Positions 33,472 to 40,084 of a stretch of DNA of 63,563 nt are shown here, piece after piece. This DNA comes from Craspedostauros australis (taxonomy: Eukaryota): the NCBI GenBank assembly GCA_030167865.1, contig JALAGF010001691.1, positions 1-63,563 on the forward strand, read 5' to 3'. Below the pieces are notes generated by a model that ran no database searches, was not told the DNA's origin, and saw only the letters and a program-made list of their open reading frames with translations. Each line of letters opens with the position of its first letter. Positions within the stretch are counted from its first letter, which is position 1. A program made the position numbers and the translations under genes.

Positions 33472-34156
33472 GCCATTTACTTCTGATGTGGTCTCTGCTC
33501 TGCTGCGTACGATTCAGCTGCAAGTGTCCTATCTAACGCTCAAATAACTGTTAATAACGTCTGCATCTCCTTGTCACCATCGCACGAGCCGTTCGTTTGT
33601 GGGAGTGACTTCCGAAGAGTCAAATCCAAACACCGCGTGAAGAAACAGAACCCGAAGTGTTCTGATTCGCATCATCTGCTGAGTGGAGGTCTGCCCTTTT
33701 GTGATTGGATGTTTGGCAGATTGATTTCTCTGAGCTGGACCGTACGTGGAAACCCTACCAAGATCTTAGTTGCCCTGACGTCACGGCGCGGAGGATCTTC
33801 CACCTTTCTCTTCTTTTGACTTCGACGCGCGACGGTGCGCAGCAACAGACAGAGAGACAGAAGGCAGAGAGAGAAAGAGACATCACATCAACAGCGAATG
33901 ACAGCCACCAACAACACCACGTAACTCGCCGCCAACATCATCAACAACGCCAACACAGATCCCCCGCATCTCCTCCCGTCGAGTCTCGTTTCCGCAACAC
34001 TTTTCGCCTTTGGATCTCGCCCGCACACATCCACAAAGTGACATCAACAGCATCAGGCCGACAAGAACTTTTATTGTTATACAACCTTCCCTGTCTGCCC
34101 ATTCCCCACAACACCGCAACACCGCAACACCACCACAGCAAAGAAGTAAGAACACA

Positions 34157-36124
34157 ATGAAGTACTGCGCTGCGATCATCCCAGCGGCCGTCGCGGCTGC
34201 CACCATCACCACTGCCGCCGCCTTCGCACCAGCCACCTTCGTGAGAAGCGCAGGCAGCGCCCAGAGCGCCTCCGAGACGTCCTCCTCCGCTCTCTTCATC
34301 TCCTCGTGGGGCAAGAAGGGACCACCAACCCGCGGGGCCGATTCCGGCCTCGGCAAGCAGAGCCCCGCGGACAACATCCAGGCCTACCTGCCCCAGCCAG
34401 ACTCCGTGGAGGCCCGCAACACCCTCGACGGCAAGGTCCTCGTGAGCGGCCTGGTGCAGACCAAGGAACGCACGGACCAGCTCCTCTTCGACTTCTGCAA
34501 CGACGCGGAATCCGCCTTCGAATTCGACAAGATCGTCGCCTTCGTTCCTGACGTCAAGTTCGCCAAGAAGCGCCTTCTCAGCCGATCGGCGCGCTACGGA
34601 GGACTGCTCAACAAGCTCGAGTTCGAAGAGCAGACCCGCGACGAGGAGGGCACCGTCACCACCACCGTCCCCACCCTGGACCAGATGAAGGGCGTCAAGA
34701 GCTGGATCGTCTACCTCGATGATCCTGCCACCATGGTCGATCAGCTGGCGCAGACAGTCGCCGTGGCCAGGGACTCCAGCGAGCTCGAGAACCTCGCCAT
34801 CCTCCTCGCCAACTCCCAAGGCCTCGACCTCGCCTCCAGCCAGACCATCCTGGAATCCCTCAAGGCGGACAACGGCACTTCCTACACCCTCTGCGCCGTC
34901 GGCAAATTGACGGACACCGAGGAAGGCAAGGCACCGTACAAGTACGCAGAATTCGCCACCGAGGAGGGCGTGTTGCCACAGAACGCCAAATACTCACGCA
35001 ACGAGGCCTACCGTCTCATCACCGAATGTCTGCAGCTCGAGTGCGGCGTCAACAAGGCGCTCACCTTCTCCGAGGTCACCGATGAGGACGAGCCCGAGTA
35101 CAAGCTCGTCAAGGGACTCCGCGAGGGAGGTTACGTGCGCATGCAAGAAATTGATCACATGATCCGCAACGGTCCAGAGGTGAGCCACCCATCATGGACA
35201 ATCCCGTACTGCCTCGTATTGCCGTTTGCTCTATTCCACGGCCTTGCCTTGTCTGATGGTTGCTGCACACACATTTGGCCGCAGCAGCTCTGCACCAATT
35301 GCGGTTTCACGTTGAGTTCATGTCATATTTGCGCAATTGTTGTTGATGGTATCTTCGCAATACTCCATCCTGCTCTACTCGAACTGCTATTTATTGTCAC
35401 ATTCGCCTCACCATTTCCACATCGCGTCTTGTCTCTCGAATTCTCCAACATCGCTCGCCAAATACTGTTGCTCTATCAACAAACGACGCCGACAACGATG
35501 ACAATTACAATACAATTACAACCCCGATACATTGCAATTGACGAAATGAAAAAACAAAACAAACACTGCTCAACTCCATTTTGAACACGAATGCAGGCCT
35601 ACAAGAAGGCCATCGAGGAATTCGATGAGAAGAACCCAGACTACAAGAGCGGCGTCTACACAACGGAAGCCTGGTGGGAGGAGCCAAGATTCAAGGAACA
35701 GCTGGCGCAGCTCCGCGCCGAGCAGGGACAGACCGACAAGGACAATGGCGTCGAGGAAGAGGTTGTCAAGGACGAGAGGACGTTGAAGATCGAAGAGATC
35801 GCCACTGACTGGGCAAAGCGTGAGTACTTCAAGCAAAACATGGACGGAACCATCGATGAGAGCATGACCGAGGAGGAGTACACCAAGTCCGTCTGGGACC
35901 GCGCCCTCTTCGAGGGTGACCTCAAGTACAGACAGATGAATGGCGAGACCCCGGACGCTGAGGCCGAGCTGGCAGACTTCAAGGTGCGCCAGGAACGCAA
36001 AGAGCAGACCATGCTGGAACGTGCCAAGGCCGAGCTCACCGAGATACTGGAGGAGGAGAACTTGGGTGGAAAGGACTTGGAGGAAACGTTGTCGAAGATC
36101 GAGCCAAGGAGCAGCAGCGACTAA
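34157..36124 (+). CDS. Plastid-targeted protein of unknown function (about 516 aa), possibly with a degenerate NAD(P)-binding-like fold; exons 34157..35179, 35597..36124
   Basis: Classic diatom presequence MKYCAAIIPAAVAAATITTAAA-FAP. Strong C/G-ending codon bias. Phase-0 intron GAG|GTGAGC...ATGCAG joins NGPE to AYKKAIEE. The fold is a weak inference. Confidence 0.85.
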
Positions 36125-36849
36125 ACCATCGGGGAGTGAGGGACCGCAATCGATGTTCCACCTGCAAAGCTTGCCTGTGCATCGCGGCTGTGCGTCGCGG
36201 CTCCCATGCCCCATCTCCACCTTCCTTCACACTCATGATGCATTGCATGATGTTTCGCAAAACATGATATTTGTATCACCAAATACCTATACCAAACCTG
36301 CATACCATACTTCTGCAATGCTCCTGCAAATACACGATACTCGCAACGCAGCGGAATGAGCCAATTGGGCAATAGGCATCTCCCTCGTGCCATTCTGATT
36401 CGTTCGGGTTGATGGCAATCATATCGAGTTCTGTCAGCACTTGTGGCTGAGAGATTGCGTGGCACTCACTCCTTGATCCGTTGTCACACAAACGCAACGA
36501 TCGAGATCAAAATGCAGGAGGCCTGCGAATACTCCTCGGCGCAATACGATACCACACTCTCTAGAGATCAGCATACTTTTCAACAGCGCCGCGAGTCCCA
36601 TCGTATGTAGCATGGTATGCATATTCTAAAACGAGCTTCGCATGTGTGCGGAATAGTCGTTGGACAGTAGTGATTCCACTCGTAGCCAATCAAGTTCCAT
36701 GTTGCGACACTGCGTACTTGTGGGTGTGGTCTGACTATGGCATGAAGCAAGCATGATAAACTTCACAGTATCGGATGATCTAATCAATGATGCCCATGTT
36801 GTCCTCTCGAAACACGCATTCGAATTGGTGCTGCGTTGACTTCGACACT

Positions 36850-36933
36850 GCCTTGTGCTGCGTCAGATTGGGGAACGCTGCTTGGTCGTTCATTGCGGAC
36901 CAAGCGCGCACTCATCGTCATTCCAGCACTGGC
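36850..36933 (-). promoter_or_regulatory. Candidate SECIS element in the 3' UTR of Sec-MsrA
   Basis: Minus-strand RNA: GCCA-GUGCUG-GA-AUGAC-GAUGAGUGCGC-GCUUGGUC-CGCAAUGAAC-GACCAAGC-A-GCGUUCCCCAAUC-UGAC-G-CAGCAC-AAGGC. Helix I GUGCUG/CAGCAC encloses an AUGA/GA core, and there is a perfect 8-bp apical stem. It lies about 75 nt after the stop codon. Confidence 0.6.
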
Positions 36934-37008
36934 GGCGTATTAATACTTGTAGGTGTATCCGGAGCATCAACCGGCAACCAACCAATGCCATCTGATAGCG
37001 TCCATGTC

Positions 37009-37836
37009 TTAGCGCCGCCCCTTGCTATTGCGACTCAAAAAGTCTTGATGCCGTGCTTCTGCCATGTAAAAACGCGCCGCCAACTCCACGTCCACAAAGT
37101 CCGGACTCCAATTGCGCACCGCAGCTTTCGCAATCGTTTCCTGCTGCGCGTTCAGTACAAACGCGGCCGTCCGGTACTGCGTCTTGGTTTGGTACGGCGT
37201 GCCAACGAGCTGCATCCACTTGTCCAAGATGCGTTCGTACGACATGGATTTGGCATCGTACTCGATGAGAAGAGATTCCGTGTGATCCTTCATGTCAAAG
37301 TACGTGGGGTTGGCTTCGTTGCCACCAGAGTACCCGACGATGCAGCGCTGATGTTCATGTACATTGATGGAAGTATAAAATAATAATTGATGCCAGACGT
37401 ACGAAATTGAAGATGCGTACGAATACGTGTATGGATGGAGATGATGGGCGGTGGGTGATGATTTGCACATATGTCAGTGGTCCGAACGCTGATAAATCAC
37501 TGACATACGACCTCGTCGTAGGGCACAGCCGCATCAACAGGATGCGGTTCTGTGGACTTGCAATGGCAGCTGCCTGTCACTCGGTCTCACCTTCACACCT
37601 GACATCGCCTTGAATTCTGGCTGCGGCGTCCAGAATCACCCGCATGCAACGATGGCGATTTCATTGCCAGGTCTCGGTCGAAGAGGCACCTCAGGGCATG
37701 ATGCCGACGCTAATGCCGATGCCGAATTGCGTTGTGGTACGACTATTGATCTCGGCGTCAACGCCGTTCTTGGTGGCGAAGGCGAAAAGGCGCAGATCGA
37801 AGCAATGCCCACCAGCAGGAGGGAACACCGGACCAT
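37009..37836 (-). CDS. MSRA: Selenocysteine-containing peptide methionine sulfoxide reductase A, predicted plastid-targeted (194 aa, Sec67); exons 37836..37591, 37347..37009
   Basis: GTT GCA TGC GGG TGA TTC TGG = VACG-U-FW at the MsrA GCFW catalytic motif (TGA 37638..37636). Phase-0 intron AAG|GTGAGA...CATCAG joins to RCIVGYSGG..NPTY..DHTE..QYRTA..FYMAEARHQDF. N-terminus MVRCSLLLVGIASICA-FSP. Confidence 0.92.
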
Positions 37837-38526
37837 CCTCAGGCAGAGAGTTTCGGATTCGGATTTGATCATTGTCATCATCATTGATGTTGCAGTCACC
37901 TCCACCCTCCCATTGTACTACTACTCTCGCCAGGAGGTCCGAATAGTGACAAAGATACCATCCTGTTTGGAGATGACGATTGTATTTCATTTTGTTAGCA
38001 ACTCCTCCAAATATCACTATTGAAAAATGACGCAAAATCAGGATGCCCTGATGACGTCCAGACTTACTGTGTGTTGCATCATATTTGGTCAGAAATAGAA
38101 AATCAATATTTGGGCAATATGTACACGATGACGGGACCATCGGAAAAATGATACAGGTATTCGCCTTGCAATCTTCTTTGATTCGTTCGGCATTTGGTGA
38201 AACCTGACCCAAACCTGTGTGAAGGTGTTTGCGGACGACGAATTGGCGGATGCGATTTGTTGTGGAGTCAACAGGTCCGAAGGGATGCGACAAATCGGTA
38301 CAGTGGAGACAAGATCTGGCGCTTTCGCACCTCCGCTCTCTTTCGGCAACGATCAAGAACACGAATAGCCCTTGACCAGCGTGCCCTCAGCATGTGCAAG
38401 GCCACGACAACCGTTTGGAAGACGTTCCCGGCGATGACGACGACAGGGAAAAGAACACAACCGACGCCACGGAAAGTGCGTCTTTCCAGTCCAACCCAGC
38501 CTCCGACGTGTTTCGAGTCATCGTCC

Positions 38527-39600
38527 ATGCTGGCGCAAACAATCGTAGTCGCCGTCACCCTCGCTGTGATCGCGCATGCCTTCGACGCTGCACCATCGAC
38601 AGGCTTCTGGGTGCACGTGCCCTGCAACATCCCAGGTGCGCAGGCTCTGTCCGACAATGCGACACCCCGAAGGACACCATCATCTTTGTCATCGCCCGTG
38701 ACCGACTTTGCCGAGTTCTTTCAGCCTCGGCACCAGCAGGGAAGAGCGCTGGAAAGAATAGGATGGCCCAACATCATCGAGCTGATGCCAACAGGATCAG
38801 ACGAAGCACCAGGATCCCCCAGCGCTCTCAAATCAGATGCAACAAGTCCAACAGGAAAGAGTCGGGATGACGGCAATGGCAACGGGAAGACAAGATCATA
38901 CGAGAACAGAAAGCCGCTGCGGCAGCAGCTGTTCACGTCACCGCTGATCTCAGTTCTGTACGAACGCATCTTGCCACCTCTTTGGGAAGCAGGTCTGCGC
39001 ATCGGCGGCCCGGATGCCGAATATGATGCGGCGACATCGCACCTCACTGGTGACGGCACGGGCATTCTTCTGGACTTATCCTGCGGCACCGGCTTCGTGG
39101 CGAGGCGATTTGCCAAGGCGGGCAGATACCAGCATGTGTTTGCTCTGGACTACTCCTTGCAAATGCTGGGCGAATGCAAGGCAACGATCCAACGCGATGT
39201 CGCCGAAACATCACAACGATCATCCATCGGAAGCAACACCGATGGCGCATACTGGAACGACCTCTCCCTCATTCGCGGCGATGCGTGCAAGCTCCCTTTC
39301 CGCGATGCCACTTTGGATGCGGTGCATTGGGGTGCTGCAATGCATTGCGTTCCCGATGCGGAGATGGCCATGTGCGAGATCTATCGCGTGCTGAAGCCCG
39401 GTGGTAAGCTCTACGCGACGACCTTCCTGCGTCCATTTCCGGACGTCGTCTTCCGCTTCTTCGAACTGCACGAGATCGAGCAGCTGGCTCGCGACGCTGG
39501 TTTCGGTGAACGGAGCGGCAGAAACAATGCCGGAGAGGCGCTGTCTGTGTCAAGAGTTGGTGTGTACGGTGTTCTGAAAGCGAAGAAAGGTATGGAGTAA
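38527..39600 (+). CDS. SAM-dependent methyltransferase (type 11/UbiE-like), predicted plastid-targeted
   Basis: Signal MLAQTIVVAVTLAVIAHA-FD. Motifs LLDLSCGTGFV, ALDYSLQML, IRGDACKLPF, LDAVHWGAAMHC, EIYRVLKPGG. LFTSPLISVLYER resembles plant plastid methyltransferases of the At2g41040/At1g78140 type (from memory, not searched). Confidence 0.88.
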   Translation: MLAQTIVVAVTLAVIAHAFDAAPSTGFWVHVPCNIPGAQALSDNATPRRTPSSLSSPVTDFAEFFQPRHQQGRALERIGWPNIIELMPTGSDEAPGSPSALKSDATSPTGKSRDDGNGNGKTRSYENRKPLRQQLFTSPLISVLYERILPPLWEAGLRIGGPDAEYDAATSHLTGDGTGILLDLSCGTGFVARRFAKAGRYQHVFALDYSLQMLGECKATIQRDVAETSQRSSIGSNTDGAYWNDLSLIRGDACKLPFRDATLDAVHWGAAMHCVPDAEMAMCEIYRVLKPGGKLYATTFLRPFPDVVFRFFELHEIEQLARDAGFGERSGRNNAGEALSVSRVGVYGVLKAKKGME

Positions 39601-40084
39601 CCGTATCGCAGAGTACAACAATTCTTCCTCCTCGCAGCCGACACTGCGGCGGCATCCTCCTGTTCGTCGATAACTGTACTAGTACGAGCTATCAGATTGG
39701 AAGATGCAATATCCAGCACAGGCCGCGTCTTGAGATGCACGAGTAGAGACGCTGGCAACCGAGAGATCGTACACGTTGTACGGGGAAAATGAGGCAATAG
39801 ACCCAAGCGGAATGGTAACGACAAGCCATTTCGAAGCATGGTGTGGAATGACATGGCATGGTGTGATACGACACTCTATGACAACTGTTAACACTGCACA
39901 GACGGTTCCAGAGTTAGGCATATTCTTCCTTGTGTCAAAATTGATGTGTTGTCGAAGCACAGCCCACAGCCCATAGTATCGGTGGTTCCGTATGGTACTC
40001 TCTCGCATACCCCGTGTGGCCATGGCCAAATCGATCGCCTGTGACCTACCACACCTCCCGTACTCGTACCATATTTGTATTTCA

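Follow-up and report, generated by a model that had tools for sequence, protein, structure and literature searches.

A two-exon methionine sulfoxide reductase A gene with a probable selenocysteine codon at its catalytic position in Craspedostauros australis

A contig of 63,563 nucleotides (nt) from Craspedostauros australis (GenBank assembly GCA_030167865.1, contig JALAGF010001691.1, positions 1 to 63,563 of the forward strand; this whole stretch is called the window) was analysed for a gene of methionine sulfoxide reductase A (MsrA) that is interrupted by an in-frame TGA. Judged from its sequence, it is very probably a nuclear, two-exon gene of a diatom-like alga, encoding a 194-residue methionine-S-sulfoxide reductase A with a catalytic selenocysteine (Sec, U) at residue 67, encoded by UGA in the motif C-G-U-F-W. 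The gene structure, a spliced RNA that carries the UGA and, in orthologues, the conservation of the UGA together with the frame upstream and downstream are established. The gene comprises the following parts.

37837..37931, minus strand: 5' untranslated stretch of at least 95 nt (piece 37591-37931 of the contig from sequencing run X1)
37591..37836, minus strand: coding part of exon 1, residues 1-82 (sequence, Pfam, RNA-type contig)
37636..37638, minus strand: in-frame TGA, proposed Sec codon (residue 67) in A-C-G-U-F-W (sequence, RNA-type contig, metagenomic loci L001-L005)
37348..37590, minus strand: intron of 243 nt, GTGAGA...CAG (GT..AG), phase 0 (joint 37347/37591 in the X1 contig; transcriptome protein P0003)
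37009..37347, minus strand: coding part of exon 2, residues 83-194, with the stop TAA at 37011..37009 (sequence, Pfam PMSR, TIGR00401)

The region 36700-38200 was read on the minus strand, where ATC GTT precedes GCA TGC GGG TGA TTC TGG ACG CCG CAG and the in-frame TGA occupies 37638..37636. When this TGA is read as U, the frame is open from 37917 to 37591 and gives ...MVRCSLLLVGIASICAFSPSPP...SCPEVPLRPRPGNEIAIVACGUFWTPQPEFKAMSGVK. Fifteen sense codons (F W T P Q P E F K A M S G V K) follow the TGA and end in AAG at 37593..37591, directly after which the donor GTGAGA begins at 37590. The intron ends in CAG (37350..37348); exon 2 opens in phase at 37347 with CGC TGC ATC GTC GGG TAC TCT GGT GGC and runs on as RCIVGYSGGNEANPTYFDMKDHTES...QYRTAAF...FYMAEARHQDFLSRNSKGRR up to the TAA. 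The spliced coding sequence, 37836..37009, extends from the ATG of MVRCSLLL (37836) to the stop at 37009, and contains no stop besides the TGA and no frameshift. Exon 1 carries the N-terminus MVRCSLLLVGIASICA followed by F, Cys47 (in CPE), Cys65, the TGA (Sec67) and the active-site F-W; Cys84 and the motifs GYSGG (Tyr88), PTY, DHTES (Glu106), QYRTA (Tyr140) and FYMAEARHQ lie on exon 2. The sequence-only reading had described the A-C-G-stop-F-W-T-P-Q frame with a TGA at the catalytic-Cys codon of MsrA, the 15 codons up to a GTGAGA donor, the in-phase splice, and the motifs GYSGG, PTY, DHTE, QYRTA and FY.AE..HQ; each of these was confirmed in the sequence.

The Pfam family PMSR (PF01625; cut-off 23.7 bits) was matched by exon 2 over profile positions 25-150 of 153 (64.7 bits, E 1.5e-17), and by the last 21 residues of exon 1 (88-108) over positions 2-22 (13.5 bits, E 0.089, sub-threshold alone), so that the pieces encoded by the two exons abut in the profile. 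The NCBIfam model TIGR00401 (msrA) matched exon 2 with 57.3 bits, under its equivalog cut-off of 108.1. Under the standard code the window holds 26 stop-to-stop open reading frames (ORFs) of 300-855 codons, 18 of which end in TGA; frames of this length that are free of TGA show that TGA is no general sense codon here.

RNA evidence was obtained from one public run, X1 (labelled 'RNA?' by index guess only), which contains 69 % of the sampled words of 36500-38100; runs X2 and X3 gave no contigs on the region. A single X1 contig of 2375 nt, compared over 34500-39500, covers 34897-35177, 35595-37347 and 37591-37931 with no other letters and no gaps. It joins 37591 to 37347, skipping 243 nt (CT..AC on the plus strand, equal to GT..AG on the minus strand), and it also lacks 35178-35594 (417 nt, GT..AG on the plus strand), the intron of a convergent plus-strand gene. 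Since the introns of two convergent genes are missing from it, the contig is derived from spliced RNA. The TGA lies inside the piece 37591-37931 with letters identical to the window, and the MsrA transcript has a word depth of 68 in X1. The contig merges the two convergent genes, and the 3' end of either mRNA is not defined by it. The junction is also present in P0003, a transcriptome ORF found by a word-index protein search with exon 2: this protein of 117 residues (MSGVKRCIVGYSGG...) starts at the Met after the TGA, reads MSGVK/RCIVGY across the junction, and is identical to the end of exon 1 (its final five residues) plus exon 2.

Relatives were collected by a metagenome scan, in which 600 stretches were matched, 569 were confirmed and the best 80 were kept (L001 onward). 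The five closest of these best 80 loci (L001-L005; 58-39 % identity) have an in-frame TGA at the same codon and no intron; GCFW was read in 74 of the remaining 75, and one is cut by the contig end. The residues around the TGA in the five loci are given below.

L001: TEISVIACG, TGA, FWGPQPEYQAMPGVTRCIVGYSGG
L002: MEMAVVACG, TGA, FWGPQPEYTRLNGVSRCIVGYSGG
L003: SEIAIVACG, TGA, FWGPQPEYQAVNGVNKCLVRYSGG
L004: NEIAIVACG, TGA, FWEPQPRLQKMKGVARVVVGYSGG
L005: ETATFALG, TGA, FWGPDSRFGSIDGVVRTRVGYSGG

The TGA is invariant in all six sequences (window and L001-L005), and the codons next to it vary synonymously (GGG/GGA, TTC/TTT, GCA/GCT/GCC). Nei-Gojobori counts against L001-L004, spanning 9-20 codons upstream and 22 codons downstream of the TGA, gave proportions of nonsynonymous differences (pN) of 0.00-0.27 upstream and 0.13-0.30 downstream; those of synonymous differences (pS) were 0.47-1.24, that is, saturated. 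The Met at position 78 is not conserved (L in L002, V in L003). An invariant TGA with purifying selection on both sides was taken to exclude that the gene is a pseudogene, that translation starts downstream or that the TGA is a real stop. L005 (130-880) encodes a more classical MsrA of 239 residues with GDHTEA, a Cys-rich C-terminal extension and TGA at the catalytic codon.

A structure model was made for the L002 orthologue (stored protein P0165, in which the TGA, read as U, is stored as C), which is 56 % identical to the window protein over the query, by using an alignment of 100 sequences (A2). The model has a mean predicted local distance difference test score (pLDDT) of 89.0 and a predicted template modelling score (pTM) of 0.76; pLDDT is 94-99 from residue 41 on, and 94-98 around the catalytic residue and the first strand. 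A Foldseek search of the PDB with this model gave 45 chains at E <= 0.001, all listed ones being MsrA; the U16C variant of Clostridium oremlandii MsrA (4lwj) superimposes with a root-mean-square deviation of 1.1 Å at 37 % identity. By sequence, the best solved structure is C. oremlandii MsrA 4w8c (E 1e-17). The catalytic column of A2 holds Cys in 66 of the 100 homologues and W in 23, the latter being read as a mis-translated TGA; the window has G-U(TGA)-F-W at residues 66-69. The columns of Y85, E103 and Y136 (L002 numbering) hold Tyr in 97, Glu in 96 and Tyr in 92 of the 100 homologues and correspond to Tyr88 (GYSGG), Glu106 (DHTES) and Tyr140 (QYR) of the window protein, which also has Phe68 and Trp69. 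We take this Tyr/Glu/Tyr set and the Phe/Trp pair to bind the substrate sulfoxide, as in work on E. coli and bovine MsrA. The MsrA fold, in the model of the L002 orthologue, and the active-site residues are among the features shown. The window protein has no C-terminal cysteine tail; Cys47 (CPE), Cys65 (at -2 from Sec) and Cys84 are conserved in the window and L001-L003, L004 lacking the last, and on this pattern they are candidate recycling (resolving) cysteines.

Truncated sequences and sequences with W at the site stand for part of this family in the protein databases. Among the 13 matches of the word-index search with exon 2, 11 are 72-122 residues long and begin past the TGA site; P0008 begins with MQPEFKA, just after the TGA position, and P0015 (72 residues) is short at its C-terminal end too. 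The sole full-length match of the 13, P0010 (181 residues), reads ASGWFWGPQ, with W at the position of the TGA in the window. The only named match, P0009, is a 'peptide-methionine (S)-S-oxide reductase' of the diatom Cylindrotheca closterium, with 111 residues and a truncated N-terminus; this species was also the only organism name added by a cluster look-up. An exhaustive HMMER search with P0010 gave 4328 representatives at E <= 0.001, and the site was read in 164 stored proteins.

GCFW: 75 of 164, one of them P0001, the window's own protein, with C standing for U
GWFW: 25 of 164, including P0010, P0019, P0027 and P0031
Site lacking: 52 of 164, mostly N-terminally truncated
Other residues at the site: 12 of 164

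From the sequences, the GWFW forms are most likely products of metagenome gene callers that translated a TGA (Sec) as Trp, so that Sec-MsrA would be concealed across protein databases by a misassigned residue. As a separate observation, seven proteins of the CPE...ACG subfamily (P0016, P0018, P0025, P0060, P0063, P0081 and P0130; 228-386 residues) have Asp, Glu or Ser in place of Sec or Cys (ACGDFS, ACGEFW, ACGSFW) and retain the Cys at -2; on sequence grounds, they may be inactive forms or enzymes with a relocated catalytic residue. Two further points of the sequence-only reading were settled by these collections: its refuting condition of orthologues that all have Cys did not apply, the closest relatives keeping the TGA with purifying selection on either side, and gene callers, as it had expected, do truncate this family, since P0003 (117 residues) starts after the TGA and the C. 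closterium protein P0009 has 111 residues.

The region downstream of the stop codon was searched for a selenocysteine insertion sequence (SECIS). In eukaryotes, an arrangement of AUGA facing GA is the requirement of the SECIS kink-turn (K-turn). Two candidates were found in the window.

36855..36929, minus strand: best SECIS candidate, 88 nt past the stop (folding; recurrence of the hairpin in L001, L002 and L004)
36650..36698, minus strand: second, weak candidate of SECIS pattern, 316 nt past the stop (UUGAU, 13 nt, AA, 15 nt, GA)

The hairpin at 36929..36855 has a helix I of GUGCUG/CAGCAC, above which GA-AUGA-C (AUGA at 36921..36918) faces U-GA-C (GA at 36864..36863); above this core follow 3 bp (GAU/AUC) and, beyond a 4x6 loop, a singly bulged stem of 12 bp that is capped by the loop CGCAAUGAAC. 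Its minimum free energy (MFE) is -28.6 kcal/mol (z -2.54). A hairpin of the form GAAUGAC...YGAY occurs in four of five loci, namely in the window and three of its four closest relatives, over a span of 45-100 nt past the stop: its distance from the stop is 88 nt (window), 100 nt (L001), 64 nt (L002) or 45 nt (L004). Its parts compare as follows, and a variable upper stem-loop tops the hairpin in each locus.

Helix I: window GUGCUG/CAGCAC; L001 CUUUU/AAAAG; L002 GUGA(A)C/GUCAC; L004 GUUUACC/GGCAAAC
Internal loop, 5' side: GAAUGAC in the window, L001, L002 and L004
Internal loop, 3' side: window UGAC; L001 UGAU; L002 CGAC; L004 UGAC
Helix directly above the core: window GAU/AUC; L001 GAUCGA/UCGAUC; L002 AAAGGU/AUCUUU; L004 GGGUCG/CGAUCC

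The helix sequences differ between the loci, yet pairing is retained (covariation judged by eye only). GAATGAC occurs at four places in the 63.5-kb window, both strands counted; the gene strands of L001, L002 and L004 each contain a single copy, which lies at the hairpin site. By a rough estimate of our own, three more untranslated regions (UTRs) would share any 7-mer of the first ~110 UTR bases of the window with a chance of ~1e-5, the motif having been picked post hoc. The pattern GAATGAC N25-55 YGAY is not enriched across the window (6 matches against 8.6 expected), so that the hairpin draws its weight only from position and recurrence. When the window was aligned with L001, its lower helix proved shorter, by ~9 nt in the 5' strand and by 7 nt in the 3' strand, with GAGU where L001 has GAAU. 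The second candidate, which none of the relatives showed, has an 11-bp helix II and a 5-nt loop (-9.8 kcal/mol in the constrained fold), and its UGA is preceded by U instead of A or G. The only weak Rfam match on the best candidate, to the archaeal C/D-box small RNA sR35 (8.1 bits, E 7.3), was rejected as merely reflecting the K-turn-like UGA...CUGA boxes. Going by its sequence and fold, the hairpin at 36929..36855 is probably a SECIS, of non-canonical form.

Several results weigh against decoding of the UGA as Sec by this hairpin, or narrow the evidence on which the gene rests. No SECIS match (RF00031 SECIS_1, E <= 10) was found by Rfam in 35500-38500, in L001-L005 or in the candidates alone; the Rfam model may not reach such elements, the relatives being unmatched too. 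The published rule demands NUGA, 10-13 nt, an unpaired AA or CC, 15-39 nt and GA in a stable stem-loop (PMC2375036, as given in the available part of that paper), and neither MFE-closure scans nor constrained SECISearch-type scans (AA/CC spacing 8-14) over ~1.1 kb past the stop found a canonical element in the window or in L001-L004. The hairpin of the window lacks an unpaired AA or CC 10-13 nt past the AUGA, and its upper part varies between the loci; only L001 carries an unpaired AA close to where it is expected (14 nt past the AUGA, at the foot of a long upper stem), and in L004 a CC follows after 10 nt. The z-scores of the folds are modest (window -2.54, L001 -1.51, L004 -2.01), that of L002 (+0.26) being no better than shuffles. 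An alignment of the four hairpins with MAFFT and RNAalifold gave no consensus pairs, owing to the unequal length of their upper parts, and the fifth locus, L003, has no GAAUGAC hairpin after its stop. Finally, the X1 contig and P0003, which were counted as one line of evidence, may come from the same data set, perhaps of the strain whose genome was sequenced. L003 (2501-2830) keeps the TGA and shows the unusual replacements VRYSGG for VGYSGG and PCPSK; this locus may be decaying, or may have its element at another place.

The missing canonical SECIS, in the window and in L001-L004 alike, is one reason for doubt about Sec insertion. If the UGA did not encode Sec, leaky termination might insert a near-cognate Cys or Trp, or two products might be made, a 66-residue peptide and a 117-residue protein from Met78, the start from which a transcriptome pipeline called the ORF of P0003. 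This is improbable. Neither the catalytic residue nor the first strand of the fold (pLDDT 94-98 in the L002 model) would be part of a protein that starts at Met78; purifying selection acts upstream of the TGA in the same frame (pN 0.00-0.27), and Met78 is replaced in L002 and L003. A TGA exactly conserved at the position of a redox-active Cys is the signature of Sec. Such a TGA is found here, and diatoms are documented users of Sec (PMC2375036, in the part available).

A decaying copy, in which the Cys codon has mutated to a stop, would account for an in-frame stop within a conserved domain and for the odd replacements in L003 (VRYSGG), and is still less probable: the TGA is invariant in 6/6 sequences despite saturated synonymous sites, the window copy has no other stop or frameshift and keeps its active-site residues intact, and a spliced transcript is present (word depth 68 in X1). 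Hardly credible at all is the reading that TGC or TGT was turned into TGA by an error of sequencing or assembly, for which only the general prior of single-base errors speaks. The separately sequenced RNA-derived contig shows the TGA with 0 differences, and five independent metagenomic orthologues have it too. The sequence-only reading had named this error as a way in which it could fail and had called for an RNA check of its splice. The error did not materialise, and the predicted junction is present in the RNA-derived contig and in P0003; assembly error and wrong splice are both excluded by the RNA-derived sequence.

Selenocysteine at the TGA, as had been proposed from the letters, appears well supported by its place at the catalytic-Cys codon, by the TGA in orthologues, by selection on both sides and by the UGA in RNA. 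The UGA would be recoded by the eukaryotic machinery (tRNA-Sec, eEFSec and SBP2), and a stem-loop in the 3' UTR would direct this, the K-turn-like hairpin at 36929..36855 being the most likely one; the window itself contains 0 tRNA genes. In the proposed reaction, the selenolate would attack the sulfoxide of methionine-S-sulfoxide in a pocket formed by Phe68/Trp69 and Tyr88/Glu106/Tyr140. Methionine would be released, leaving a selenenic acid on the enzyme, which Cys65, Cys47 or Cys84 would resolve to a selenenylsulfide, to be reduced by thioredoxin or glutaredoxin.

A farther-reaching proposal is made tentatively and is considered rather unlikely. The recoding element of this MsrA group could be a divergent eukaryotic SECIS with a GA-AUGA-C/YGAY K-turn core on helix I, no AAR or CC at a distance of one turn, and a free upper stem, and the subfamily (signal peptide, CPE, C-G-U, no recycling tail) could be recycled by a route not yet described. 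Directly above the core, the window has a helix of only 3-4 pairs, and the 12-bp stem comes next. A literature search on diatom SECIS and selenoproteins found no description of diatom SECIS architecture among the papers listed. If such a divergent SECIS were functional, finders based on patterns or Rfam would miss these elements and under-count the selenoproteins of stramenopiles.

The N-terminus of the window protein has a hydrophobic core like that of a signal peptide and was read by eye as MVRCSLLLVGIASICA followed by FSPSPP (ICA-F). N-termini of similar length that end in xxAF were read in the same way in L001 (ANA-F), L002 (TSA-F) and L003 (TLA-F). In the bipartite plastid presequence of diatoms, an ASAFAP-type motif has Phe after the cleavage site of the signal peptide (PMC4329603, in the part available). 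The N-terminus encoded in the window resembles such a presequence, which makes the plastid or the secretory path the probable site of the enzyme. The start codon is putative: four more in-frame ATGs (MMM.M) lie upstream at 37884, 37881, 37878 and 37872 within the transcribed 5' region, and near 37912 an ATG in another frame begins an upstream ORF of ~73 codons, which overlaps with the start of MsrA (ORF 37691..38386).

Two neighbouring genes were characterised. The convergent plus-strand gene has two exons (33902-35177 and 35595-36124), and its GT..AG intron of 417 nt is confirmed by the X1 contig. No Pfam match was found for it (33902-36124); its N-terminus, MKYCAAIIPAAVAAATITTAAAFAPATF, is a near-perfect ASAFAP-type plastid presequence. 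The assembly of both transcripts into a single contig shows that the 3' end of this gene lies in or directly next to the MsrA 3' UTR. The divergent neighbour at 38560-39600 (plus strand) encodes an S-adenosylmethionine-dependent methyltransferase (Methyltransf_11, E 4e-20) with a possible signal, MLAQTIVVAVTLAVIAHA followed by F. An identity as a Sec-type algal methyltransferase was rejected for it, there being no in-frame TGA, and a GAATGAC at 39846 (plus strand), 246 nt past its stop, was rejected as an element, as it forms no hairpin.

The locus is a concrete case of a selenoprotein gene lost in annotation, P0003 and the Cylindrotheca protein both being truncated at the UGA, and about one-sixth of the representative homologues retrieved (25 of 164) carry a spurious Trp at the catalytic site. 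Corrected gene models matter for estimates of the selenium demand of marine phytoplankton and for an understanding of their defence against photo-oxidative damage. In Thalassiosira pseudonana, an MsrA protein is reported to rise 2.2-fold under high light (PMC5139114); the available part of that paper does not state whether this is the Sec form.

Sec-MsrA in diatoms and other algae is already published, and the biology itself is not new; possibly new are only the non-canonical 3'-UTR element and the cysteine layout of the signal-peptide-bearing subfamily. In T. pseudonana, MsrA is among 16 selenoproteins, tRNA-Sec was sequenced, and the Sec-MsrA of Chlamydomonas was used as a query (Lobanov et al. 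2007, PMC2375036, in the part available). According to the excerpts available from a survey of 137 algal species, MSRA belongs to the Sec proteins with the widest distribution, and a diatom has 20-44 selenoprotein genes (Jiang et al. 2020, PMC7539508). Compared by description, these enzymes are likewise eukaryotic algal MsrA with UGA-encoded Sec, from a diatom lineage with a documented Sec system (PMC2375036, PMC7539508). Their SECIS elements were found by using SECISearch, whereas the candidate in the window fails such a pattern (PMC2375036). The Sec-MsrA of Chlamydomonas reinhardtii, also compared by description only, likewise has Sec at the catalytic position and belongs to a photosynthetic eukaryote, but to a green alga. 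This Sec form is reportedly more active than its Cys mutant.

Among solved structures, the best match by sequence is the Sec-MsrA of Clostridium (Alkaliphilus) oremlandii (4LWJ, 4LWK, 4LWL, 4LWM, 4U66, 4W8C), a natural Sec enzyme whose entries are titled U16C/U16S; like the window MsrA, it is a short form with D-H-S/T-E-S in place of G-H-A-E. Unlike the window gene, it is bacterial and relies on a SECIS hairpin in the coding region and SelB rather than on a 3'-UTR element, and it has no signal peptide, intron, N-terminal CPE segment or Cys at -2. The Cys-type enzymes (E. coli 1FF3, poplar 2J89, bovine 1FVG) share the fold and the motif G-C-F-W; they differ in having Cys for Sec, recycling cysteines in a C-terminal tail that is absent from the window protein, and GHAE where the window protein has DHTE.

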